Origin: Ignicoccus pacificus DSM 13166 | GTDB taxonomy: Archaea; Thermoproteota; Thermoprotei_A; Sulfolobales; Ignicoccaceae | Assembly: GCA_025340205.1 (NCBI GenBank) | Contig: CP006868.1 | Span: 1,620,001-1,652,000, forward strand | Reading direction: 5' to 3' | Length of the DNA stretch: 32,000 bases | Shown here: positions 13,346 through 27,525 of the stretch, piece after piece | Layout: every line of letters starts with the position of its first letter | Position numbering within the stretch: position 1 is the stretch's first letter | Notes under the pieces: generated by a model | The model's database searches: none | Told to the model about the DNA's origin: nothing | The model's input: only the letters and a program-made list of their open reading frames with translations | Translations under genes and position numbers: made by a program

Positions 13346-14005
13346 GTGATCGATCTGGCCTACCTCCTAATTGGTTTTATAAAGGCAATACTGTACTTCA
13401 ACACACTAATGGCATCCTCACACACTGACTTGACCTCGCTATTTCCTCATAACATAATTCAAAGCACCCAAACGCTTAGTACAAGCAACTGCACGATTCA
13501 GATAGTCAAAATCAGTAACACTACCCTGCCTATAGCCAAGGCTACGATAGTGGTTACACCCCTATACCTCAAAGGCTGGAGAAACGCGTTCATACATTCT
13601 ATTGAGTATCTAGTATCGCATCATGTTGAAGTAATCCTAGTCAAGCCTGTCTGTAAAGGCTATGTAGATGGAACGATCAAAGATTTAACGAAGGTTGTTA
13701 AAAGTACTAACACTACAACGTGTTATGGTTGGGGCCCAGAAGCGCTTATCTGTATGAACGTCACCGACGTCTCTTCTATAGCTGATTCTCCTCAAGGAAG
13801 CTACGAACTCATGAGATCCTACCTCTCGACGTTTGGAGCTGGTGGCTATCTTGCTTTGGAATACTTGTATGGAAAGGGATTGCTGTTCAAATACGCACAA
13901 TCAAATAAGCTGCTAGTCAATGGAAAACTATACGGATTCTCTAACAGGGATGTACCCCTCTTACTTTGGTCACCTGAGGTGCTCCTGAAACTAATCGTGA
14001 AATAA
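13346..14005 (+). CDS. Hypothetical membrane-anchored or secreted protein
   Basis: GTG start. The N-terminal hydrophobic segment is LAYLLIGFIKAILYF. It has several N-x-S/T sequons (NCT, NTT, NVT) and paired cysteines. I recognise no family. Confidence 0.45.
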   Translation: MIDLAYLLIGFIKAILYFNTLMASSHTDLTSLFPHNIIQSTQTLSTSNCTIQIVKISNTTLPIAKATIVVTPLYLKGWRNAFIHSIEYLVSHHVEVILVKPVCKGYVDGTIKDLTKVVKSTNTTTCYGWGPEALICMNVTDVSSIADSPQGSYELMRSYLSTFGAGGYLALEYLYGKGLLFKYAQSNKLLVNGKLYGFSNRDVPLLLWSPEVLLKLIVK

Positions 14006-14040
14006 ATACCGTGCCAAGCTCTCCTCGCGGGCCTATCGTC

Positions 14041-15996
14041 ATGAAGAAGATAGTGTTGGGGCTAACACTACTGCTCATCTTAGCGATAATGGGTGGTTCT
14101 GCATGGGACACTTACGTGTTTATAGAGAGCACGAGACTCTTCGTGAAGGGTATAGATCCTTACGTATTCTATAACGACGTCAGAGCGTACTTACCAGGTC
14201 TAGGTCCCATGTGGCTAACCTATCCGCCGTTACCCTTGTTCCTATGGGCCCCCTTCATAGCCCCCTTAGTTTACTTGAAGATTCCTCTATCATGGCTCTA
14301 TACGTTGGCGGTAAAGATACCTTCAATCATAGCTCTCTTAGCTTCGGTCTATATGATAAAGAAGAAAAACGGTAAGTGGGTTTGGGTACTCTTTAACCCA
14401 ATAGCAATAGCTACCATATTCATTCATGGAATGTTTGACGTTATTGTTGCGTTCTTCTTACTCTTCAGTCTATTAAACATAGATGAAAGGAAGGAATTAA
14501 GTGCAATAAGTTTTGGACTGGCGCTGGCGACTAAGCAGCATGCAGTCCTAGCTGCCCCTGCCTTCTTAGCCTACTTTCTAAAGAAAAAAGATTTTAAAAA
14601 TATGATAAAGTTCTTCCTAATAGCAGCGCTAGCTTTTGCAATGGTAATACTTGCCTTTGAAGCCATCTTTGGATTCAATGACATCAGCTACTTACTCAAG
14701 AGCGTCTTTCTCTTCCATACCAAGAGACCACCTAATGGATTGGGCTTCGGTGGTTTCGCCGTAATGAACTTCTATGCGGATGCCTTCGACCATTACGCCG
14801 GCAACACAGCTGTGGCCTTGTACATGGGAGGTCATGCTTCTGTGCTTTCGAAGATCGTAGATAAGATAGCACTGCTAATGATTCCGGCTGTTCTGTTAGC
14901 ATTAAAGTTAGATCCTTTGACAGCTACATTCCTCATCTACTTGGATTATATAGCACTGAGTTACGTGGGAGCGATCCAGCATATGGTAGTTCCTATGGTG
15001 CTGGCAGGTTTAGTCTTAGCTAAGGATGACAAGTTACGCAAGATATTGCTATATAGCTTCACGCTATACGCCATAGAGCATGTATTGGTATTCTGGGACT
15101 TCTTCCCGATGTTCCTTTCGCCGCTCTTCCTGAAACAGTTTGGTATGTGGATGGCCTACATATCGAGGCTCAGTGACACGTTCTTCCCTTATTGGGCTAT
15201 GCTCTTAAGAGCGTTCGGAGTTGTAGTAACCTCAGCAGCGCTAGCTCTATTACTGATCTTCTTGACTCTCTACTATAAGGAGAAATTTGCGTTTAGGTTC
15301 TCCGGCCTAATAATACCAACCTTATACGTACTCGAAATACTGCTACTCGCGATATTCATGAGTGGCGTGACTGGTCATGTTGCAGTTCACCATCCTTCAC
15401 AAGCAAAGGGTTGGTGTCTTCTAGTACCATGGGAGAACTCAGAGTATCCAGGCTATAGGATGGGTGACTATCTATCTCCCTTTGCTATTCCCACGCCTTT
15501 AGGCTACTACTCTTACGTCTACCCAGTAGCTGAGAAGGTGATTAAAGATCTCAAGGGGAGGTGCAATATCGCAATTCTAGCTAGAGAGGACTTGTTCAGG
15601 GCTTACCAGTACGTAGACTTACTCTCCGTCATAATGAAATACAACATGACCTATGCTTGGGTAATTACATCAAACAAGAATTACCTAGAGGGATTGGGTA
15701 GTGGTCCTTATCAAACCCTCATTCCTACAATACTATCGAACATACCTTATAAGAAAATGTTCAGAATGGGAGGAATCATGGGTTTCATGAATTTGACGTT
15801 CAACTTCTTACCACCGATATCTTATCAAGGATATTACAAGGTACACAACAGGCCCGTGATCTTCGTGTGGAATATAAACCCCAATGATTTAATTACTATT
15901 AAAGAAATGGTTAGGGGCAAAGACGTTGTGATATTACCTTTTAGAGGAAAGATATTGGACATCAAAGCCTTGGGGCTATCCATAATCGGAGGCTAG
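14041..15996 (+). CDS. Large polytopic membrane protein, probably a GT-C-type glycosyltransferase (DUF2029/PMT-like)
   Basis: It has at least 12 hydrophobic segments. An acidic first loop (SAWDTYVFIESTRLFVKGIDPY) follows TM1 as in GT-C enzymes. A C-terminal soluble domain of about 200 aa follows. The ATG at 14041 (MKKIVLGLTLL) is preferred to the GTG at 14011. Confidence 0.45.
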   Translation: MKKIVLGLTLLLILAIMGGSAWDTYVFIESTRLFVKGIDPYVFYNDVRAYLPGLGPMWLTYPPLPLFLWAPFIAPLVYLKIPLSWLYTLAVKIPSIIALLASVYMIKKKNGKWVWVLFNPIAIATIFIHGMFDVIVAFFLLFSLLNIDERKELSAISFGLALATKQHAVLAAPAFLAYFLKKKDFKNMIKFFLIAALAFAMVILAFEAIFGFNDISYLLKSVFLFHTKRPPNGLGFGGFAVMNFYADAFDHYAGNTAVALYMGGHASVLSKIVDKIALLMIPAVLLALKLDPLTATFLIYLDYIALSYVGAIQHMVVPMVLAGLVLAKDDKLRKILLYSFTLYAIEHVLVFWDFFPMFLSPLFLKQFGMWMAYISRLSDTFFPYWAMLLRAFGVVVTSAALALLLIFLTLYYKEKFAFRFSGLIIPTLYVLEILLLAIFMSGVTGHVAVHHPSQAKGWCLLVPWENSEYPGYRMGDYLSPFAIPTPLGYYSYVYPVAEKVIKDLKGRCNIAILAREDLFRAYQYVDLLSVIMKYNMTYAWVITSNKNYLEGLGSGPYQTLIPTILSNIPYKKMFRMGGIMGFMNLTFNFLPPISYQGYYKVHNRPVIFVWNINPNDLITIKEMVRGKDVVILPFRGKILDIKALGLSIIGG

Positions 15997-16732
15997 AGCC
16001 CATCTCCATTTCGTAATCTATTCTTAGAGGTAGGTCCTGCCCGAAGCTAAGGCTTAAGCTCTCAGCTGCTTGGTACGCTCTAGAAGCATCGTACAGATGT
16101 GCCACTGAATACTTAGCCTTCGCCTTTTCATCAACTATTAGCGACAGCAAAGGGTTACCTAAGGAGAGCTGGGCCTCGTAACTCTTGCCCACGTCACTCG
16201 TGAGGATTCTTATCATATCGTTGCTTGGCGTTTCCATAAGTACTTCTTCACCTATTATCTTGGCATCAGCTACTATATCCCTCAAATCCTTGGGCTTCAT
16301 TGTTGCTTCAACAGTCAAGTCAACTTCTGGCTCTTGCAGATCCTCTTCTTCAGCCATCTCTAAAGCACTTACCTTGAATTCTCTCTCAACGCTAGTCTTC
16401 TTATTTATAAACTTAATTATGAAATATGGGGATCCTGTTTCGTAGCTCAATATAACCATATCATCTCTAGTTCCTCTCTTTATCACCTTAGAAACCTCAT
16501 CCGGTATGAGTTTGACTAGCAGTTCATCTTTCATGAGTACGTATTCCTCGAACGATGCCGCCACCATGTTAAATATTACCATTAAGTTGTTGTCACTACT
16601 CATTCTCTTTACATTTATGCCTTCTTGAGTTATCTTCAATGGAAGTTCCTCGAAGAGCTTGAGTATAGGTTGCCATATCTTTTTGAACTTACTAGCATTC
16701 GGGAAAACTGCCTTGAACGTAACTTCATCCAT
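15962..16732 (-). CDS. pcn: DNA polymerase sliding clamp PCNA
   Basis: The product from the ATG at 16732 (MDEVTFKAVFPNASKFKKIWQPI ...) is 256 aa and ends LRLWIAPRL, the typical archaeal PCNA C-terminus. The 68-codon extension in the ORF track is low-complexity and overlaps the divergent gene. Confidence 0.85.
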   Translation of the reverse strand: MDEVTFKAVFPNASKFKKIWQPILKLFEELPLKITQEGINVKRMSSDNNLMVIFNMVAASFEEYVLMKDELLVKLIPDEVSKVIKRGTRDDMVILSYETGSPYFIIKFINKKTSVEREFKVSALEMAEEEDLQEPEVDLTVEATMKPKDLRDIVADAKIIGEEVLMETPSNDMIRILTSDVGKSYEAQLSLGNPLLSLIVDEKAKAKYSVAHLYDASRAYQAAESLSLSFGQDLPLRIDYEMEMGSSLRLWIAPRL

Positions 16733-16762
16733 TTGAGGACCCAATGTAGCTTCGGTGCCCCC

Positions 16763-16771
16763 TTTATTATA
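16763..16771. promoter_or_regulatory. Near-palindromic TATA element shared by pcn (-) and the 16803 gene (+)
   Basis: TTTATTATA lies 31 nt upstream of the pcn ATG (16732) and 32 nt upstream of the TTG at 16803. Confidence 0.4.
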
Positions 16772-16802
16772 CTCTAGAACAGCACGGTAGCTGGGAGAGA
16801 GC

Positions 16803-17189
16803 TTGAAGGAGATAAAGATTCTCGTAGATGGGGGTAAGTATAAGTGGGTGACGCTCCCCAAGGATGAAGCTCTAAAACTCTTGGAGATGATAGAGGGAGA
16901 ACTTGGAAGAAGTCCCAGGGACCTACAAGAGACCATGAGGTACCTGAGGCATTTCGATGAGTTCTACAGGGATATGAAGAAGAGGTTCAAGGATTTCATC
17001 GCACCTTCTCATAGTTTAGATGACATGATAAGAGGGGTAGTTGTGGTTGACAAGGTGGCTCTCAAAAAGGAAGGAGATCAAGACCTAGCTACCATAGTCT
17101 TTGATAGGAGGGTCAAAACTGAGCTCTTGAAGAAGTTGCTAGAAGAATTGGGTTACAAAGTAGAGATAGAGGTGGAGAAGTTATGGTAG
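16803..17189 (+). CDS. Hypothetical protein (128 aa)
   Basis: Composition is charged and protein-like. It uses a TTG start, with the ATG at 16887 as an alternative. Its stop overlaps the start of the next gene (ATGGTAG). I recognise no family. Confidence 0.5.
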   Translation: MKEIKILVDGGKYKWVTLPKDEALKLLEMIEGELGRSPRDLQETMRYLRHFDEFYRDMKKRFKDFIAPSHSLDDMIRGVVVVDKVALKKEGDQDLATIVFDRRVKTELLKKLLEELGYKVEIEVEKLW

Positions 17190-17404
17190 AGGTCGTCAGG
17201 GTGTTTCTTCACACCTATGATGACGACCTCTTTGAGAAGGCGTTAAAGAAGTTGGAGGAACTTGGTTCTGTCAAGATTTCCAAGTCCATGGTAGTACCGA
17301 ACTACGCTTATTCGGAATTACCTCCATCTTCTTTGAGTAAGGCCAAAGAAGTACTCGAGGAATTGGGAATAGAGGACTTTAAGGTGGTACTGGTTAAAAC
17401 CTGA
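17183..17404 (+). CDS. Hypothetical small protein (73 aa)
   Basis: It is translationally coupled to the preceding ORF and contains two LEELG-type motifs. Its 3' 97 nt overlap the convergent ATPase ORF. Confidence 0.45.
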   Translation: MVEVVRVFLHTYDDDLFEKALKKLEELGSVKISKSMVVPNYAYSELPPSSLSKAKEVLEELGIEDFKVVLVKT

Positions 17405-18717
17405 AGGATTTCCTCTACGTCGACCAATATCCTCTTTACGTGACCCTGATGCCTTAGAAACACCTCCCCTCGGGGCAATGCCTTCAATAATCTATATTGT
17501 TCTCCTAGAAGCTTGAAGTATAGGTCCTCATTCTTGATACTATTCGACCTAAAGAGTATCATCGTGTGTGTATTAGTTAATATCGCATCGCTTAAGTCGC
17601 CAAGCTCTTGTGTCGATAAAACCACGCCGACGCCTTTGCTGCGCCCCTCCCTAACTAGCTCTTCCATCAATTCCTCCGAAACAATCCACGCTTCATCTAT
17701 TACGACAAGTCTTCTAAGTCTTTTCGTTGGATTCATTTCTATTATCTCATTTAGAATATTTAACATAATATCGTTTATCTTTTCATTCCTTAATCTAGGA
17801 TCACCATGATACGTTATTACATTTACCTCAAGATCAACCTTCTCCAAAATATACCTTAAATCACCTTTAGGATCAACCACAGTTACGTCAACATCTTCGC
17901 TAAGAGTTTTTAGCCTATATATTAGAGAGGCTAGAAAAGTAGTCTTCCCAGAACCCGTAGAGCCAACTACACCTACATGATGAGTCAAATCATCATATCC
18001 TAGAAATACTGGCTCATTTGTCGATATGTCTTTCCCTATATATATTCCATTGATATCTGATTTCTTGACATGGGGATACACTAGCCCTAGGGATTCAGCG
18101 GTACAAGTGATGTCCTTACTCTTTATTATGTTTACGTTTATCAATCTCTTCAGCTCTCTGTTATTAATTTTCCTCACCTTCGCACCTAAGAGGTTCTCGA
18201 GTACTACTGAGATGAACTGCATCTCAGAGCGCAACTTATTTAGTTCGTTTGAGTATAACAGATACTTCAAGTTAATACTAGCAGGAGGAACTCCTTCGCT
18301 TAGCACCTTATATAACTTCTCAAGTACCCTAAGTTTTCTATCAACCTTTACGTCTGTAGGATCGCTCATCTTCAATACCCTCAAACTAGTTATTTCTCTC
18401 TCAAGTTTCGCTAATATGTCGTTAACTGCAATTGGTTTCTTCACCAATCTTATCTCTAATATCATTCCTGGAGCCGCTCTTTGGAGAGCATAAGAATACT
18501 GCCTTATGGTCTCATAATATTCATCGTAAAGCCTACTCGGATCAATATCTACAACCTCTATTCCTCCGACAAATATCACCTTTTTCCCGTAGACAACCTT
18601 TATTATACCGTCTTCTACATTGAACATTCTCTTTCTCTTTATTCTATTACTTCGTTTACATACTATTAAGGCGACTAGCGTAGGCACCAAGATCTCAAAT
18701 ATCATTACCTCTACCAT
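17308..18717 (-). CDS. Membrane-anchored FtsK/HerA/VirB4-superfamily P-loop ATPase (CedB/TedB-like candidate)
   Basis: N-terminal TM IFEILVPTLVALIVC. Walker A THHVGVVGSTGSGKTTFL (about 17941-17985). Walker B RRLVVIDEAWIV (about 17688-17720). The N-terminal half is about 230 aa and non-P-loop, as in VirB4/HerA-like proteins. Its start overlaps the stop of the upstream membrane-protein gene. Confidence 0.7.
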   Translation of the reverse strand: MVEVMIFEILVPTLVALIVCKRSNRIKRKRMFNVEDGIIKVVYGKKVIFVGGIEVVDIDPSRLYDEYYETIRQYSYALQRAAPGMILEIRLVKKPIAVNDILAKLEREITSLRVLKMSDPTDVKVDRKLRVLEKLYKVLSEGVPPASINLKYLLYSNELNKLRSEMQFISVVLENLLGAKVRKINNRELKRLINVNIIKSKDITCTAESLGLVYPHVKKSDINGIYIGKDISTNEPVFLGYDDLTHHVGVVGSTGSGKTTFLASLIYRLKTLSEDVDVTVVDPKGDLRYILEKVDLEVNVITYHGDPRLRNEKINDIMLNILNEIIEMNPTKRLRRLVVIDEAWIVSEELMEELVREGRSKGVGVVLSTQELGDLSDAILTNTHTMILFRSNSIKNEDLYFKLLGEQYRLLKALPRGEVFLRHQGHVKRILVDVEEILQVLTSTTLKSSIPNSSSTSLALLKEDGGNSE

Positions 18718-20297
18718 AACTTAATACTCAATCTCTTAACGCCGCCAGAGATGAGCGAAGCTATAGCATACGTACTCATCGACATAATTATTATATGTAT
18801 TATTGGGACTGCGGTTATGAAGAACGGCAACAGAAGTATATCAAACTCATTATACTTATACTTACCTAGAACCTCCAGAACTTGAAGCCCTAGTTTATTT
18901 GCTAAGTATCCATACCCAACTATTCTAGGAGGCTCAAACGTCGTCTGTTCTCCAGTAATTGCTACCGTCACGTCCTTCCCTTGAGGCACGTACATCTTCA
19001 AAATCCATACGTCTATTCCGTACCACTCCTTTCTCAAAAGTATCGGATTTCTTGCACCGCTGCTAACGTAAACGCCCATACCCTTGGGATCGAACAATCC
19101 CGAGGTAGAGAGGGTAACGTTACATGCACTCCCTACATGAAAAGAGACAACAAACCTCATCTGTCCACTACTCAACGTCTCGAATTTGGGACCCGAGGTT
19201 ATCTCATAATAGCAATTTTGAGGGAAGTAGAGAACGATACCTGAATCCGGCATGACTATGCCTTTGAATGACATCTTCATTCCGTTCTTAACTGTCATAG
19301 GCTCCAGGCCCATTTTCCTCATATCAATTATACCCTTGTTTATAGTAATTCCTAATATTTGTAAGGTGAAATTTGTGTAAGGCCACGGAGCCCCACCTAG
19401 CATATAGGCTGTGTTAACCTCCCCCTTAGGGCCGGCTGGGTAGATACCACAGATGCCCTTGAGGTCGCACAATTGAAGTACGGAATACGCTAGAGGATGC
19501 CACTTACTGTCGTACAGCATTGCTTGAAAGTAGCTAACATTGCTCATGAAGGAGGGGGATTTTATTCCCAAGAAGCTATTCCATAAATTGGAAAATAGTG
19601 GATCATAGAGGGCAATTAACTTTAGTACCAATATAACTAATGGACCCATTATATAAGTTACCATAGCTAGTGCAATGAGAAATGCTCCTGATGCTTTGGT
19701 TATTCTAAAAGGGATCCCGACCATCACTATTCCCGATGCAAGCATAAAAGGCGCCAAGAGTTCCGATATTCTGCTTACAATGTAGAGAAAAGTCCATGCA
19801 TATATACCGGATTTCAGTGTTGTCAATAGCATGTCCATAAAGGGTTTCGTAAATATATTCGTAAACATATAGAACTTTGAGTATAAGTAGTAAATACCCA
19901 TAATAATAGTGCCTAGAGGAATGTTTTCGTAATTGAACTTGAAAAGCATGTTAATTACTTTTGAAATGTAATTCAAAGCTAGATAAAGTGTTCCTAAGTT
20001 TTTCGCTATTGATAATATCTCATTCACGTAGTCCTCTCTGTTAATACCCATCATTTTGTATGCGTAGCTCATTCCCCATATTATCATAGTAAAGAAAGAT
20101 ACTAGGGCTATGGTAAGAAGACCGTCACTTATTAAGGCAGGGGCCCACTTTTTTATCCCCTTTATTGGAATAGGGAGAGAATATATTAGAACACCTAGGA
20201 AGTACGTAAATACACCTAACGCGGTCGCTAAGCTCAACAGCTGCCATATTATGTCCATCTCACACCCTATTTGATAACGCCCAAAGTTCCCGTACAC
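18711..20297 (-). CDS. Polytopic membrane protein with a large extracellular domain (VirB6/CedA-like candidate)
   Basis: About 6 TM segments lie in the first 235 aa. A beta-rich, Cys-containing soluble region of about 250 aa follows, with N-x-S/T sequons. It ends in a final TM (FDILLLPFFITAVPIIHIIIMSMSTYAIASLI). An alternative start is the ATG at 20258 (MDIIWQLL). Confidence 0.6.
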   Translation of the reverse strand: MYGNFGRYQIGCEMDIIWQLLSLATALGVFTYFLGVLIYSLPIPIKGIKKWAPALISDGLLTIALVSFFTMIIWGMSYAYKMMGINREDYVNEILSIAKNLGTLYLALNYISKVINMLFKFNYENIPLGTIIMGIYYLYSKFYMFTNIFTKPFMDMLLTTLKSGIYAWTFLYIVSRISELLAPFMLASGIVMVGIPFRITKASGAFLIALAMVTYIMGPLVILVLKLIALYDPLFSNLWNSFLGIKSPSFMSNVSYFQAMLYDSKWHPLAYSVLQLCDLKGICGIYPAGPKGEVNTAYMLGGAPWPYTNFTLQILGITINKGIIDMRKMGLEPMTVKNGMKMSFKGIVMPDSGIVLYFPQNCYYEITSGPKFETLSSGQMRFVVSFHVGSACNVTLSTSGLFDPKGMGVYVSSGARNPILLRKEWYGIDVWILKMYVPQGKDVTVAITGEQTTFEPPRIVGYGYLANKLGLQVLEVLGKYKYNEFDILLLPFFITAVPIIHIIIMSMSTYAIASLISGGVKRLSIKLW

Positions 20298-20335
20298 TGA
20301 GGATCACGAAATTGAGTAAGAGAAAGCGGTGGTTC

Positions 20336-22270
20336 ATGAGAACCGACATCGTTTGGGACATTGAAAAGAACGTGCCTACCTTCAAGAGTACTTGTTGGGA
20401 CTGTAACGTAGTAGAGCTCCCAATGACTGACCCCGGAGATGCCAGACTGGCTTTTGAAAGCGATCTAGATATATTAAGAGAAGCTTTGAATAATGAATTC
20501 GGAGCTCCCGAGTATTGGAAGGACGTAGTCGGATCCGGCGTAGTACTTGTAAATAAGGGAGCTGGACTTGATGACTTTAGAGAACTCTTCGCGAGGGGTA
20601 CTATAATCGGTAAACTGTACTGGGACTTGTTTGAAGGCAAGTGGAGGTTCAGGTTAAGCTACGCCAGCGCTAAGGTGCTATTAGAGAAAGGTATCATGAA
20701 TACCTTTGAAGTGGATGAACATCCCAAGGAAGGAGCAAATCTGTTTTCTGAAGGATGTGAGGAGGGTACACAAATAGTCTTGGTCAAGAACGGCGAACCT
20801 GTCGGCATAGGTTACTGCAGAAAAAACGGCAGGATAAGGGTAGTTACCTCCTTCCCACCGGAGATTGTGGGAAAAGAGCCTTTTCCAGCTAAGGATAAGC
20901 CAACGACTTGGGACGACGTAGTAAAACATAATGAATATAGGATTAGGATGATGACTTCCCAAGCGAAGAGATTCCTATACAACATGATTAACAAAGTTAA
21001 GAAGACGGTAACGGTTTCCTTTTCTGGGGGAAAGGATAGCTTAGTAGCGCTACATCTGACAAAGCAGCTGGTCGAACCAATAGTAGTGTTTAACAACACT
21101 GGAATAGAAATGCCTGAAACCGTTGAAACCGTTGAAAGGGTCGTCAAAGCTTGGGACCTTAAACTCGTCACGGCGGATGCCGGAGACGACTTCTGGCACG
21201 CTCTCAGAATGATTGGACCGCCGGCGAGGGACTTGAGATGGTGTTGCAAGGTAGCGAAGCTTGTTCCAATGGCTAAGTTGGTAAAGGAGAGATGGCCTGA
21301 AGGCACGCTTAACGTAGTTGGTCAGAGAGCGTTCGAAAGCATAGAGAGAGCCAAGTCCCCAAGAGTTTGGAGGAATAAGTGGTTCCCTCAAGTATTAAAT
21401 ATCTCACCCATTCAAGATTGGACTCAATTGGATGTATGGCTCTACATATATTCAAACGACCTCATGGAATTCGTCAACCCTCTATACTTCAAGGGGTTCG
21501 AGAGGGTTGGTTGCTTCATGTGCCCAGCCAGTCTGATGGCAGAGTTTGAGTTTACTAAGAAAGTTCATCCCGAACTCTGGGGGAGGTGGGAAAGAGAATT
21601 AGAAAGGTGGAGAAAGTTATTGGGACTTCCAGAAGAGTGGAGCAAGTATGGTTTGTGGAGATGGCTATCCTATTCTACGAAAAAGAAGACCATTCTTAGA
21701 AAGCTTGGAATAGAGTATGACTGGAAACGAGAATTTGAGGGACGAATACATCCATCAATAGTGGAGAAGACTATCGAAAACGAAAGGGTTGAACTTGAGT
21801 TCTCCTCTCGAATAGACTTAGCTTTGAAGGACCAGTATAGCGTACTCGGTAAGCCGAGTGAAGATGGCATAGTTTCAGATGAGATCAAAGTATCATTCGG
21901 TCAAAGGAAGGTTGCGATAATCGGTAGTAACCCGATAGAGGGCGCTATAGAAGTTTCCGCCCTCATTCAAAGATGGTTCAAGTGCTTGAGGTGTAAGAGC
22001 TGCGAAGTGTGGTGTCCTACGGGTTCAATAAAGGTTACCACGAGACCTAAGATAGATTCAGAATCGTGCATAAGTTGCAAGCTCTGTCTGCTCGAGTGTC
22101 CAATGTATGATCCGTTTGCAGATAGAGTAGTCTCTGCAGTAATCCTCGATGATCCAAACGCGTGGAAGAGGAAGACTAAGATGTCTAGAAAGGAGCTGGT
22201 TAAGAAGCTGAAGGAGAGCGTTGTAGAAGAGGCACAAGGGCTAGGTGGTGTAGGCTCAGAGGAGCTTTAA
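20336..22270 (+). CDS. PAPS reductase-family (PP-loop) protein with an N-terminal PUA-like region and a C-terminal 2x[4Fe-4S] ferredoxin domain
   Basis: PP-loop VSFSGGKDSLVALHL. It has the RWCCKVAKL and GCFMCP cysteine motifs. The ferredoxin motifs are CKSCEVWCPTGSI and CISCKLCLLECP. The ATG at 20336 is preferred to the TTG at 20312. Confidence 0.75.
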   Translation: MRTDIVWDIEKNVPTFKSTCWDCNVVELPMTDPGDARLAFESDLDILREALNNEFGAPEYWKDVVGSGVVLVNKGAGLDDFRELFARGTIIGKLYWDLFEGKWRFRLSYASAKVLLEKGIMNTFEVDEHPKEGANLFSEGCEEGTQIVLVKNGEPVGIGYCRKNGRIRVVTSFPPEIVGKEPFPAKDKPTTWDDVVKHNEYRIRMMTSQAKRFLYNMINKVKKTVTVSFSGGKDSLVALHLTKQLVEPIVVFNNTGIEMPETVETVERVVKAWDLKLVTADAGDDFWHALRMIGPPARDLRWCCKVAKLVPMAKLVKERWPEGTLNVVGQRAFESIERAKSPRVWRNKWFPQVLNISPIQDWTQLDVWLYIYSNDLMEFVNPLYFKGFERVGCFMCPASLMAEFEFTKKVHPELWGRWERELERWRKLLGLPEEWSKYGLWRWLSYSTKKKTILRKLGIEYDWKREFEGRIHPSIVEKTIENERVELEFSSRIDLALKDQYSVLGKPSEDGIVSDEIKVSFGQRKVAIIGSNPIEGAIEVSALIQRWFKCLRCKSCEVWCPTGSIKVTTRPKIDSESCISCKLCLLECPMYDPFADRVVSAVILDDPNAWKRKTKMSRKELVKKLKESVVEEAQGLGGVGSEEL

Positions 22271-26133: not shown

Positions 26134-27360
26134 TTAGAGATACTTAAGAAGCTCTATGAGACGTTTATCTCCGACACGATATTTGCTTCTCCTTTTTCCC
26201 CTACTACTGGGTGTCTTTTCGACTAATCCTTTTTTCAAGAGAGGCTCTTTCAAGCGGTAATGGACGGTACTCTTAGCTACGTCGTAACCTTGCTTCTTTA
26301 ACCATCTCGTAACATCACTTGGTCCCGCTTCACCGAGTTCAGCTAACGCCTTTAAGATCATTCTGTCGAGTTCGTCTAACTCAAATAAAACGGTAGTCTC
26401 CATAGCCCGTTCAGCCTCTTTTATCGCTAGCTCGATGTGCTTCTTCTGAAGAGAGCCATCCTTAGCAGCGTAGGTTAGTGCTCTCTGTGCAACCTTGATT
26501 GTATCTCTCAATATTGGGAAGTGCTTCCAAATTTCCTCGATCCATTCCTCCTTGAATGGATAGAATGGGTTCTCTGGAGTGGCGAAATCTTTCAATCTTT
26601 TTGAGAATACCTTCTTGGTCTCCTCAGCGTTATAGCCAGGTATCCTAATTTCTATGAACTTACTGACTACGTGTGGAAATCGAGTCCTGAAGGAGTTTAG
26701 ATGGTCAGGTATTATAGTGAAGATGAAGCTAACCTTTCCTTGCCCCTGTAAGAGGTTGTCGAACCAGAAGGCAAGCTGTTCAAATGACTCAGAATAGGCG
26801 AATCCGTCTACCATGAAAATCACTGGTATGTTGCTGTTATCTACTATAAAGCCTAAGGCGGATTTCAAGGTATCTAAATCAACTCTTCCCATTTTCTCAA
26901 ATCTCATAAGCACGTTTTCTACTACTTGAGTTATATACTTGAAGAACTTTTCATACTCTTGGTTCATCCCTACGAAGTATATCCAGCCCGGCTTCTTGAA
27001 ACCCTTTTCAAGACCTTTGAGTAGATTATATAAGAATTTCTGAGGGTTATCGTCGTAGACGGTCTTTACTACTATGGGAATTAGCTTCTTCATTGATGCT
27101 TCTAAGGGTGACCGCGGGTAAGGGATATCCATTTCCTTTCTCCAGAAATTCAAGAACGTAGACTTGCCTAGACCGTAGCTTCCAACTACGAAGACTCTGC
27201 TATTGCCACCTTCCTTCACTATTTTCTCATATACTAGCTTTTCGAAGAGGTTATCAGGTTCGTAGCGCTTGACGTAGAACCGCAGCATTTCGCCGTCCAG
27301 CGGAGCCGGCTCGAACCTCCGTATCAGTTCGTAGAAGTCGGGCGGCACGCCACTCTCCAC
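26134..27360 (-). CDS. Divergent Orc1/Cdc6-like AAA+ ATPase with a C-terminal winged helix
   Basis: Walker A VFVVGSYGLGKSTFL (about 27158-27196). Degenerate Walker B VIFMVDGF. IEIRIPGYNAEETKKVFSKRL and ILRDTIKVAQRALTYAAKDG resemble the Orc1/Cdc6 box VII and lid. The terminal wHTH is LDRMILKALAELGEAGPSDVTRWLKKQGYDVAKSTVHYRLKEPLLKKGLVEK. A GTG at 27360 lies 22 nt downstream of a TTTTTACA box. The ORF-track ATG at 27486 would add 42 codons that run through the repeat cluster. Confidence 0.6.
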   Translation of the reverse strand: MESGVPPDFYELIRRFEPAPLDGEMLRFYVKRYEPDNLFEKLVYEKIVKEGGNSRVFVVGSYGLGKSTFLNFWRKEMDIPYPRSPLEASMKKLIPIVVKTVYDDNPQKFLYNLLKGLEKGFKKPGWIYFVGMNQEYEKFFKYITQVVENVLMRFEKMGRVDLDTLKSALGFIVDNSNIPVIFMVDGFAYSESFEQLAFWFDNLLQGQGKVSFIFTIIPDHLNSFRTRFPHVVSKFIEIRIPGYNAEETKKVFSKRLKDFATPENPFYPFKEEWIEEIWKHFPILRDTIKVAQRALTYAAKDGSLQKKHIELAIKEAERAMETTVLFELDELDRMILKALAELGEAGPSDVTRWLKKQGYDVAKSTVHYRLKEPLLKKGLVEKTPSSRGKRRSKYRVGDKRLIELLKYL

Positions 27361-27373
27361 TCCCCTACTAGTG

Positions 27374-27525
27374 TGTCCAAATGTAAAAACAGCGGTAACC
27401 CTTGAGTTGGATAATAGGACATCTATCAGTGGTTGGACTAAGTGATAATGTAGTACAAATGGTCCAGATGTCCATTGGACGAACAAACTAGTTGTACCGA
27501 GATAATTAGTTGTCCAAGTGTCCTG
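27374..27525. repeat. Cluster of TTGGACA/TGTCCAA boxes in both orientations in the divergent promoter region
   Basis: TGTCCAA at 27374. TTGGATA at 27407. TTGGACT at 27433. The palindrome GTCCATTGGAC at 27470-27480. TGTCCAA at 27511. TGTCCT at 27519. TATA-like elements lie at 27382-27389 (-) and 27502-27508 (+). Confidence 0.85.

Follow-up and report, generated by a model that had tools for sequence, protein, structure and literature searches.

The crenarchaeal Ced system for DNA exchange was reportedly described by van Wolferen et al. in 2016. This article concerns two overlapping genes, IPA_09560 and IPA_09555, that resemble cedA and cedB of this system and lie on the chromosome of Ignicoccus pacificus DSM 13166. 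The DNA that we analysed is a 32-kb window of that chromosome; positions are those of the window, and what is said here of genes missing from I. pacificus refers to this window. In the Sulfolobales, Desulfurococcales, and Acidilobales, Ced comprises CedA, CedA1, CedA2, and CedB, to which CedD and CedE were added later (PMC9905601, PMC11823120, PMC11868833). A link between CedA and VirB6 comes from published HHsearch results and superpositions (PMC9905601, PMC11868833). The Ted system of the Thermoproteales (TedA, TedB, and TedC, the last being a signal-peptide pilin) has no recognisable sequence similarity to Ced (PMC9905601).

We consider it probable that the Ignicoccus pair is orthologous to the central part of the crenarchaeal Ced machine, namely, the CedA channel and the CedB motor. 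This assignment draws on homology and architecture, on the orthology seen in synteny and in the tree, and on catalytic motifs that are intact; DNA as the substrate, the direction of import, hexameric assembly, and induction by DNA damage are carried over by inference from Sulfolobus. The pair appears to be a divergent and reduced addition to the known Ced system, previously unnamed in Ignicoccus, and Ignicoccus homologues may already be listed in earlier Ced literature. In this way, two “hypothetical” genes, probably conserved in all three cultured species of Ignicoccus, would gain a name and a testable function, and the Ced system would reach into a lineage whose double-membrane envelope is unique. 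To our knowledge, Ignicoccus lacks genetic tractability.

A first-pass annotation of this DNA had called the pair Ced/Ted-like. The Ced half of that label is borne out by the best hidden Markov models (HMMs; CedA and CedB), by profile alignment with hhalign, by a match to the pilin structure 8DFU, by the ATPase tree, and by a fold resembling TrwK/VirB4. The Ted half has to be dropped: the proteins show direct similarity to the CedA and CedB HMMs, there is no adjacent pilin gene, and the published definition of Ted, which includes no Ced similarity, sets the two systems apart. The features of the locus are as follows.

18711..20297, minus strand: cedA-like gene IPA_09560, an open reading frame (ORF) of 528 aa from a GTG; the probable start, ATG at 20258 (M14), gives 515 aa
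17308..18717, minus strand: cedB-like gene IPA_09555, 469 aa from an ATG, encoding a predicted membrane-anchored ATPase of the VirB4/HerA superfamily
18711..18717, minus strand: cedA/cedB overlap of 7 nt, ATGGTAG, with the cedA stop within the cedB start, a geometry of translational coupling
20259..20311, no strand assigned: divergent intergenic region to a gene resembling 3'-phosphoadenosine 5'-phosphosulfate (PAPS) reductase, with the A/T-rich element TTATCAAATA ~12-22 nt upstream of the probable cedA ATG

The proteins IPA_09560 and IPA_09555, both annotated as “hypothetical” in the record, are identical to the products of 18711-20297 (-) and 17308-18717 (-), respectively. That two ORFs of 528 and 469 aa overlap had been noted at first pass, and we see exactly these ORFs, on the minus strand, and the 7-nt overlap. 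The length of 528 aa holds for the ORF as listed and probably not for the protein: because all orthologues begin at its Met14 (MDIIW...), the true start is probably the ATG at 20258, giving 515 aa, and the GTG at 20297 would be an over-extension. At the junction (AAGTTATGGTAG), the TGG-TAG end of cedA shares 7 nt with the cedB ATG, and the junctions of the orthologues are similarly tight, with overlaps of up to 7 nt and gaps of up to 10 nt. A promoter role is putative for the TTATCAAATA element. The G+C content over the pair is slightly lower than nearby (0.39-0.41 vs. ~0.43-0.46), as is to be expected of hydrophobic membrane proteins. On the other strand, a gene for a 73-aa soluble protein with no family match (17183-17404, +) runs towards cedB, and the two genes share 97 nt (17308-17404) at the Ser-rich 3' end of cedB.

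The membrane protein should be considered first. NCBIfam NF041796 (CedA) matches IPA_09560 at 5.3e-27 and 95 bits, and the CedE model at 8.6e-12. The NCBIfam equivalog cutoff for CedA is 330 bits, of which IPA_09560 falls short, as does the long-form relative P0018 (167 bits); by this criterion the protein would belong to a distant CedA subfamily and would not be an equivalog. The precomputed Pfam label PF27251 “CedA1” is carried by IPA_09560 and all its orthologues, a local Pfam-A scan of the protein gave no match, and the NCBIfam CedA1 model matched aa 16-78 weakly. When a profile of 99 long-form relatives, described hereunder, was aligned by hhalign with a profile of 21 short CedA proteins, the probability was 100% with an E-value of 6e-52 over aa 14-232; all 21 of the short proteins match NCBIfam CedA, the best at 4.7e-110. 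The long-form profile also matches the A. pernix CedA1 pilin (PDB 8DFU_B) at 3.1e-9 over profile positions 3-67, and the CedA/CedA1 relationship of Beltran et al. (PMC9905601) is thereby reproduced here. By hydropathy and the AlphaFold2 model, IPA_09560 has six to seven predicted transmembrane (TM) helices, and its N-terminal region is homologous to the CedA1 pilin, both as is expected of a CedA. Its predicted parts are given below.

20058..20258, minus strand: N-terminal two-helix hairpin, aa 14-80, homologous to the CedA1/VirB2-type pilin, with an invariant LPIP...K.W motif
19572..20258, minus strand: predicted polytopic helical membrane core, aa 14-242, common to short canonical CedA (AlphaFold2, hydropathy, and hhalign)
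18948..19550, minus strand: putatively extracytoplasmic all-beta insert, aa 250-450, of two predicted beta-sandwich domains (AlphaFold2 strands 254-449, predicted local distance difference test score [pLDDT] ~95)
18747..18848, minus strand: predicted C-terminal TM helix, aa 484-517, followed by the basic cytoplasmic tail ...SGGVKRLSIKLW (hydropathy and AlphaFold2)

Residues G35, P42, P44, and K49 are invariant across the 99 long-form sequences. The AlphaFold2 model, for which 99 homologues served as input (mean pLDDT 89.6), is helical to about aa 242 (helices at aa 7-242, pLDDT mostly >90), all-beta from 254 to 449, and closed by a long terminal helix at 484-517. The number of N-terminal TM helices, put at about six at first pass, depends on the threshold: 4-6 clear hydrophobic helices lie ahead of the insert, which fits about seven TM helices overall. 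A domain with cysteines and sequons at nt 18857-19592 (aa 236-480), described as extracellular and followed by a C-terminal TM helix, had likewise been suggested, and both AlphaFold2 and hydropathy agree. Cys277, 283, 362, and 392 and the sequons N253, N309, and N393 are all within the beta region. Positive charges are found in loops 41-50 and 195-203 and in the C-terminal tail, and it is because of these, with the cysteines and sequons in agreement, that we place the beta region outside the cytoplasm. The terminal helix and a G-L-A-x-x-L-G-G...R tail are present in long and short CedA homologues alike. No match to the TrbL/VirB6 Pfam families was found in IPA_09560 or any of the 99 family members at E-values up to 1.

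How unusual is this insert? An exhaustive profile search of 1.84 billion representatives gave 139 relatives, of which ~99 are of the long form (445-518 aa), in which a helical core (to ~190-240) is followed by a non-TM insert of 200-250 aa and closed by a TM helix. Another ~24 of the 139 are 246-300 aa long, lack the insert, and retain the terminal helix and tail; their matches to the CedA model mark these short relatives as canonical CedA/CedE. Because G292 and W425 are nearly invariant among the 99 long-form proteins, the insert is regarded as homologous throughout them. Pfam CarboxypepD_reg is found in the insert of 11 of the 99, and in these the first beta-sandwich is CarboxypepD_reg/transthyretin-like. 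Foldseek searches of the IPA_09560 model (PDB and BFVD) returned for this part only generic beta-sandwich, immunoglobulin-like, and pilin-domain matches, including the BcpA pilin at 9e-4. The insert is also present in nearly every cedA1-linked locus of Desulfurococcales, Pyrodictiaceae, and Acidilobaceae genomes. An ectodomain of ~200 aa is the majority state of CedA, and the short Sulfolobus-type CedA is the exception. The textbook CedA of Sulfolobus with its six to seven TM helices is, in other words, a minority form, and most homologues bear a beta-sandwich ectodomain, of which we found no discussion in the searchable literature. The remark at first pass that so large an extracellular domain is not associated with CedA has to be reversed, as this is the commonest architecture of the family once the short Sulfolobus-type proteins are set aside.

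For the ATPase, the following features can be recognized.

18649..18717, minus strand: predicted N-terminal TM anchor, aa 1-23 (hydropathy peak 2.4; AlphaFold2 helix 2-24)
18133..18636, minus strand: predicted non-P-loop alpha/beta N-terminal domain, aa 28-195 (AlphaFold2), covered by the CedB alignment and not by those of HerA, CedD, or VirB4
17938..17973, minus strand: Walker A, GVVGSTGSGKTT, from the translation
17686..17706, minus strand: Walker B, VVIDEAW, from the translation; a conserved REGRSKG segment then follows at nt 17629-17661

These parts (one N-terminal TM helix, an N-terminal half without a P-loop, Walker A, and Walker B) had been read correctly from the translation, and hydropathy and AlphaFold2 concur. 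The best model for IPA_09555 is NCBIfam NF041017 (CedB), at 9.2e-34 and 117 bits, with aa 21-301 aligned to model positions 50-330; the equivalog cutoff for CedB is 700 bits, of which the protein falls short. The next models are HerA_antiphage (1e-11) and CedD (4e-10), which cover the P-loop core only; taken together, the HerA, CedD, VirB4, TraD, and EccC models are restricted to this core at ≤44 bits. TIGR00929 (VirB4) gives 36.6 bits against a cutoff of 643, so that IPA_09555 would not be classified as a VirB4 member by its sequence, although it may act in the manner of one. The AlphaFold2 model of IPA_09555, built on a 7-sequence alignment, is of medium quality (pLDDT 75). Its best Foldseek matches are to R388 TrwK/VirB4, at 2.7e-15 to 1e-13 with TM-scores of ~0.3-0.4, followed by SIR2-associated and Sulfolobus HerA (~1e-12 to 1e-11) and FtsK (1e-10).

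ATPases were gathered from 90 related loci, and a neighbour-joining distance tree, without bootstrap, was made of 78 locus ATPases. The tree separates the ATPases encoded downstream of cedA from a second ATPase of ~600-660 aa beside the PAPS-reductase-like gene. The Ignicoccus ATPases nest within the cedB-position clade, closer to the partner type (mean distance 2.04) than to the second (3.23), and IPA_09555 is on this basis best regarded as a CedB orthologue, though one distant from the characterised Sulfolobus CedB. Within Walker A, G252, G255, G257, and K258 do not vary among 47 partner ATPases, nor do D341, W344, and R359 farther along. In comparison with P0008 and P0009, which are more distant relatives, and with the longer type of partner ATPase, mostly of 490-605 aa, Ignicoccus CedB is without an insertion of ~80-100 aa between Walker A and Walker B. 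In one Ignicoccus-related metagenome-assembled genome (MAG; locus L005, 6001-7191), a cedB-like ATPase of 396 aa with no N-terminal TM helix directly follows a 518-aa cedA. The second FtsK/HerA-type ATPase (~600-660 aa, membrane-associated) lies upstream of cedA1 in 19 loci in total, for example, at L006 3779-5623 (-) and L008 2895-4739 (-), and in L006 and L089 it is the immediate neighbour of the PAPS-reductase-like gene; the CedB, CedD, and VirB4 models match its P-loop domain.

The same arrangement of genes is found in I. hospitalis (ABU81898.1) and four MAG lineages, and the CedA orthologue of I. islandicus is EYM_07610. Six Ignicoccus-clade loci were compared (the window, L001, L002, L003, L005, and L092). 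In five of the six, the PAPS-reductase gene abuts cedA, and L005 has a PIN-domain gene upstream instead. The pair appears to occupy an ancestral chromosomal position. As the first-pass annotation had it, the pair sits among housekeeping genes: the other identifiable genes of the window are those for aconitase X, TIM, SBDS, MoaA, an iron-dependent repressor, a TtuA-like protein, a radical SAM protein, PCNA, a PRK13795-type PAPS-reductase/4Fe-4S protein, PTH2, aspartate-semialdehyde dehydrogenase, and methionine synthase.

It is in the pilin gene that Ignicoccus differs. Outside the Ignicoccus clade, cedA1 is immediately upstream of the long cedA in five of five loci (L006, L008, L089, L090, and L091), vs. 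none of the six Ignicoccus-clade loci, that of I. hospitalis among them. This comparison is unbiased, as the loci were fetched via CedA itself. The CedA1 genes of these relatives are 87-97 aa, and those of L006 and L008 score 124-131 bits (124 bits in L006) vs. an NCBIfam CedA1 cutoff of 100; the ATPase of L006 matches CedB over its full length at 217 bits. In L006, L008, L089, and L091, cedA1 occupies the position of the Ignicoccus 20259..20311 intergenic region. In four of the five loci, a PAPS-reductase-like gene, a second ATPase of the DUF87 type, or both lie not more than a few kb ahead of cedA1, and in L006 and L008 PCNA and the gene for s128, a 128-aa soluble protein, are also nearby. 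The absence of cedA1 from its conserved position is specific to Ignicoccus.

We also scanned GTDB species genomes with CedA1 as the seed, using a two-sequence CedA1 alignment and strict peptide patterns. This gave 104 genomes, of which the best 80 are considered here; the resulting loci are biased towards having cedA1 and were kept out of the comparison above. The best 80 of 104 belong to Desulfurococcales, Desulfurococcaceae, Pyrodictiaceae, Acidilobaceae, Staphylothermus, Hyperthermus, Pyrodictium, and Caldisphaera, and Ignicoccus is absent among them. In nearly all of these loci, cedA1 is followed by a long cedA of 450-508 aa, and in most then by an ATPase of 393-605 aa. About 60% of the non-Ignicoccus loci have a gap between cedA and the ATPase of 117-210 nt, which fits a two-TM micro-ORF of 52-60 aa. 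Such a micro-ORF is seen just downstream of the long cedA in L008 (9521-9694), L089 (4939-5112), L091 (4958-5140), and L090 (4876-5034), and it may be a CedA2-like small subunit; the L008 example had no family match in NCBIfam. There is no micro-ORF between cedA and the ATPase in Ignicoccus, nor in Acidilobaceae-type loci. Second-ATPase queries of the window matched the cedB-like gene alone. The Ignicoccus locus is the most reduced among the loci compared, with no adjacent pilin gene, micro-ORF, or nearby second ATPase and with a shortened CedB.

If the pair is indeed a Ced core, the machine may be pictured as follows. IPA_09560 would be a CedA-type (VirB6-like) polytopic channel of the cytoplasmic membrane, of which the first two helices are pilin-like. 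Its two-domain beta-sandwich ectodomain, between the penultimate and last TM helices, would face outward, that is, into the inter-membrane compartment of Ignicoccus, a genus with an outer membrane, a wide inter-membrane space, and no surface layer (S-layer) (PMC7613921). IPA_09555 would combine a TM anchor, a CedB/VirB4-like N-terminal domain, and a P-loop motor of the FtsK/HerA superfamily. The genes would be co-transcribed and, since their reading frames overlap, CedA and CedB are likely produced together, to assemble as a channel-motor complex of the inner membrane. Hydrolysis of ATP by a CedB oligomer could then push DNA through the CedA pore, or else assemble that pore, and by analogy with the Sulfolobus work the DNA would be moved inward.

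Several observations weigh against this interpretation and must be stated. The scores are far below the equivalog cutoffs (95 of 330 bits for CedA and 117 of 700 for CedB), as of distant relatives of the Sulfolobus proteins. No VirB6 chain was among the top 50 PDB matches of the IPA_09560 model in Foldseek. Of the VirB4/VirB6 comparison proposed at first pass, the VirB4 half may hold by fold (TrwK), and for the VirB6 half no match was found by sequence or fold. No CedA1 or CedA2 pilin and no CedD-like ATPase was found in the window or any Ignicoccus-clade locus, and the CedA1 profile had no match among all window ORFs of at least 40 aa (best E 0.12). CedA1, CedA2, and CedD are all required for DNA transfer in Sulfolobales (PMC11823120, PMC11868833), and a two-protein machine of the inner membrane cannot by itself connect two cells. 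Finally, cedA and cedB share 30-34% identity between I. pacificus and I. hospitalis, vs. 59-78% for the PAPS-reductase, PCNA, and s128 genes, and relaxed constraint is a possible cause of such fast evolution. With the nearest MAG, identity is 51-53% for the pair vs. 67-95% for most housekeeping neighbours. Most adjacent housekeeping genes change two to three times more slowly than the pair, whose fast pace also fits a surface-exposed recognition role.

Another reading, which we hold to be unlikely, is that Ignicoccus has repurposed the system. It supposes that cedA1, the micro-ORF, and the second ATPase were lost genome-wide and that Ced was reduced to a pilin-less CedA-CedB module; without a mating pilus, the module would move DNA or another polymer across the inner membrane only, to or from the inter-membrane compartment, with the beta-sandwich ectodomain as a docking platform. 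The five-of-five vs. none-of-six distribution of cedA1 points this way, as do the absence of Ignicoccus from the best 80 of 104 CedA1-pattern genomes, the shortened CedB, and an envelope with two membranes and no S-layer (PMC7613921). Against it, however, the absences were established for loci only, and in Sulfolobus the ced genes are dispersed, with cedB unlinked (PMC11823120); the scan used strict peptide patterns, and its best 80 of 104 genomes were considered. The pilin-like hairpin and all CedA core motifs are moreover kept, and no feature of the proteins signals a new function. If the missing parts are absent genome-wide, the Ignicoccus locus would define the minimal functional core of a conjugation-derived machine. 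A pilin-less module of this kind would be a natural minimal translocon for DNA of the type IV secretion system (T4SS) type, possibly of relevance to exchange at the Ignicoccus-Nanoarchaeum contact site.

Might the locus be a non-functional remnant, decaying after the loss of its partners? The accessory genes are gone from the locus, the pair diverges at two to three times the rate of its neighbours, and the L005 ATPase, at 396 aa, has lost its TM anchor. Yet in each of the six Ignicoccus-clade loci both reading frames are complete and uninterrupted, at identities as low as 27-52%. The two Walker motifs, the arginine segment, and the core motifs of CedA do not vary; the genes still overlap or lie close together; and the AlphaFold2 model of the membrane protein is highly confident. 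Intact ORFs together with catalytic residues that are invariant across deep divergence argue against decay, and we judge a remnant to be quite improbable.

We give still less credence to the view that the pair is part of an integrated conjugative element or of a T4SS of plasmid origin (VirB4/VirB6) and no chromosomal exchange system. The resemblance of the ATPase fold to TrwK/VirB4 and the slightly lower G+C over the pair would speak for one, but low G+C is expected for hydrophobic membrane proteins, and the VirB4 and TrbL/VirB6 models are at or below noise. The window contains no integrase, relaxase, coupling protein, tRNA, or repeat boundary; the first-pass annotation had already remarked on the lack of an integrase and of a VirB2-like pilin nearby, and no free-standing two-TM small ORF is found near the pair in the window. 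Position and neighbours are furthermore alike in I. hospitalis and several MAGs, and partly in Desulfurococcales.

That the ATPase is a HerA-type helicase for end resection (HerA-NurA) or anti-phage defence (SIR2-HerA or Dnd/Dpt-type) can be put aside almost entirely: matches to the central domain of Pfam DUF87/HerA (4.8e-12), to PADLOC mad8 (1e-21) and HerA (1e-20), and to defence HerA sequences in the PDB (~1e-5) would favour it, but they are confined to the P-loop core (aa 213-311 or 330-430), whereas CedB scores higher and spans the N-terminal domain, helicase_HerA reaches 26.9 bits vs. a cutoff of 970 and HerA_Thermprot 20.8 vs. 800, no NurA, Mre11, Rad50, SIR2, or nuclease gene is in the window, and the protein is membrane-anchored, its gene overlapping a CedA homologue without a defence-family match. 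As to formal membership, HerA-NurA was ruled out by the negligible HerA scores and the lack of nurA, mre11, and rad50 in the window, and PADLOC anti-phage HerA by matches limited to aa 213-311 and by the lack of any defence-family match in the membrane partner and both small neighbours. The profile results that at first pass were named as refuting the Ced reading (an ATPase of the HerA-NurA kind and a partner unlike VirB6/CedA) did not appear: the HerA-NurA scores are negligible, and the partner resembles CedA.

The neighbours of the Ced pair deserve a few remarks of their own. The divergent gene at 20312-22270 (+) encodes a PAPS-reductase-domain protein of ~650 aa (NCBIfam PRK13795 “hypothetical protein”) that has a 4Fe-4S ferredoxin at its C-terminus. 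Counterparts, likewise divergent from cedA or cedA1, are at L006 5628-7619, L089 1146-3155, and L091 1-1676. Such a gene abuts ced genes in Ignicoccus and many Desulfurococcales (it is ~1.5 kb upstream in L091), and this linkage is kept over a large phylogenetic distance. The s128 protein (16803-17189, +) has no family match and is 78% identical between I. pacificus and I. hospitalis, which is above PCNA; its gene is near PCNA and the Ced locus in Desulfurococcales too. At 324 aa, the PCNA ORF of the window (15962-16936, -) is longer than its orthologues (247-256 aa) through an over-extension at the 5' end, which runs into the start of the s128 gene on the other strand. On the far side of PCNA are genes for a sequon-rich protein of 219 aa (13346-14005, +) and a polytopic membrane protein of 661 aa (14011-15996, +), neither with a Pfam or NCBIfam match; they are conserved beside PCNA in the Ignicoccus clade only, with 35-52% identity to the nearest MAG. 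A protein of 450 aa (26134-27486, -) also lacks a Pfam match and is strongly conserved, sharing 87% identity with the version in the nearest MAG.

It remains to compare the Ignicoccus pair with known systems. It resembles VirB4 (TrwK) and VirB6 (TrwI) of the R388 T4SS (PDB 7O41 and 8RTB) in joining a polytopic channel to a VirB4-type motor, and the best fold matches of the ATPase are found there. It differs in that the VirB4 and TrbL/VirB6 HMMs score below membership and that the Ignicoccus locus has no VirB3, B5, B7-B11, VirD4, or relaxase; the bacterial T4SS, moreover, exports DNA, whereas its Ced relative imports it. Ted likewise has a VirB6-like channel and a VirB4-like ATPase domesticated on the chromosome, but the Ignicoccus proteins are matched directly by Ced models, and no gene resembling tedC adjoins the pair. 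Compared with the A. pernix Ced pilus (CedA1, 8DFU; PMC9905601), the first ~65 residues of the Ignicoccus-type CedA align at 3e-9, although in the window the pilin-like module is confined to the N-terminus of CedA, without a free-standing pilin gene. The locus differs from Ced as described in lacking an upstream cedA1, a small two-TM ORF, and a second ATPase in the CedD position, in a CedB that is ~80-130 aa shorter, and in sequences far under the equivalog cutoffs; its host differs from other Ced hosts in having two membranes and no S-layer, and its role in DNA import is putative. The likenesses to Ced are nonetheless several: a CedA-type TM core with a pilin-like hairpin, a CedB-type ATPase that has both a TM anchor and an N-terminal domain like that of CedB, and a chromosomal position amid housekeeping genes. 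With the Ced loci of Desulfurococcales it shares the PAPS-reductase-like gene, s128, and PCNA as neighbours, and with nearly all of the non-Sulfolobus-type loci compared, a long CedA with a beta-sandwich insert.

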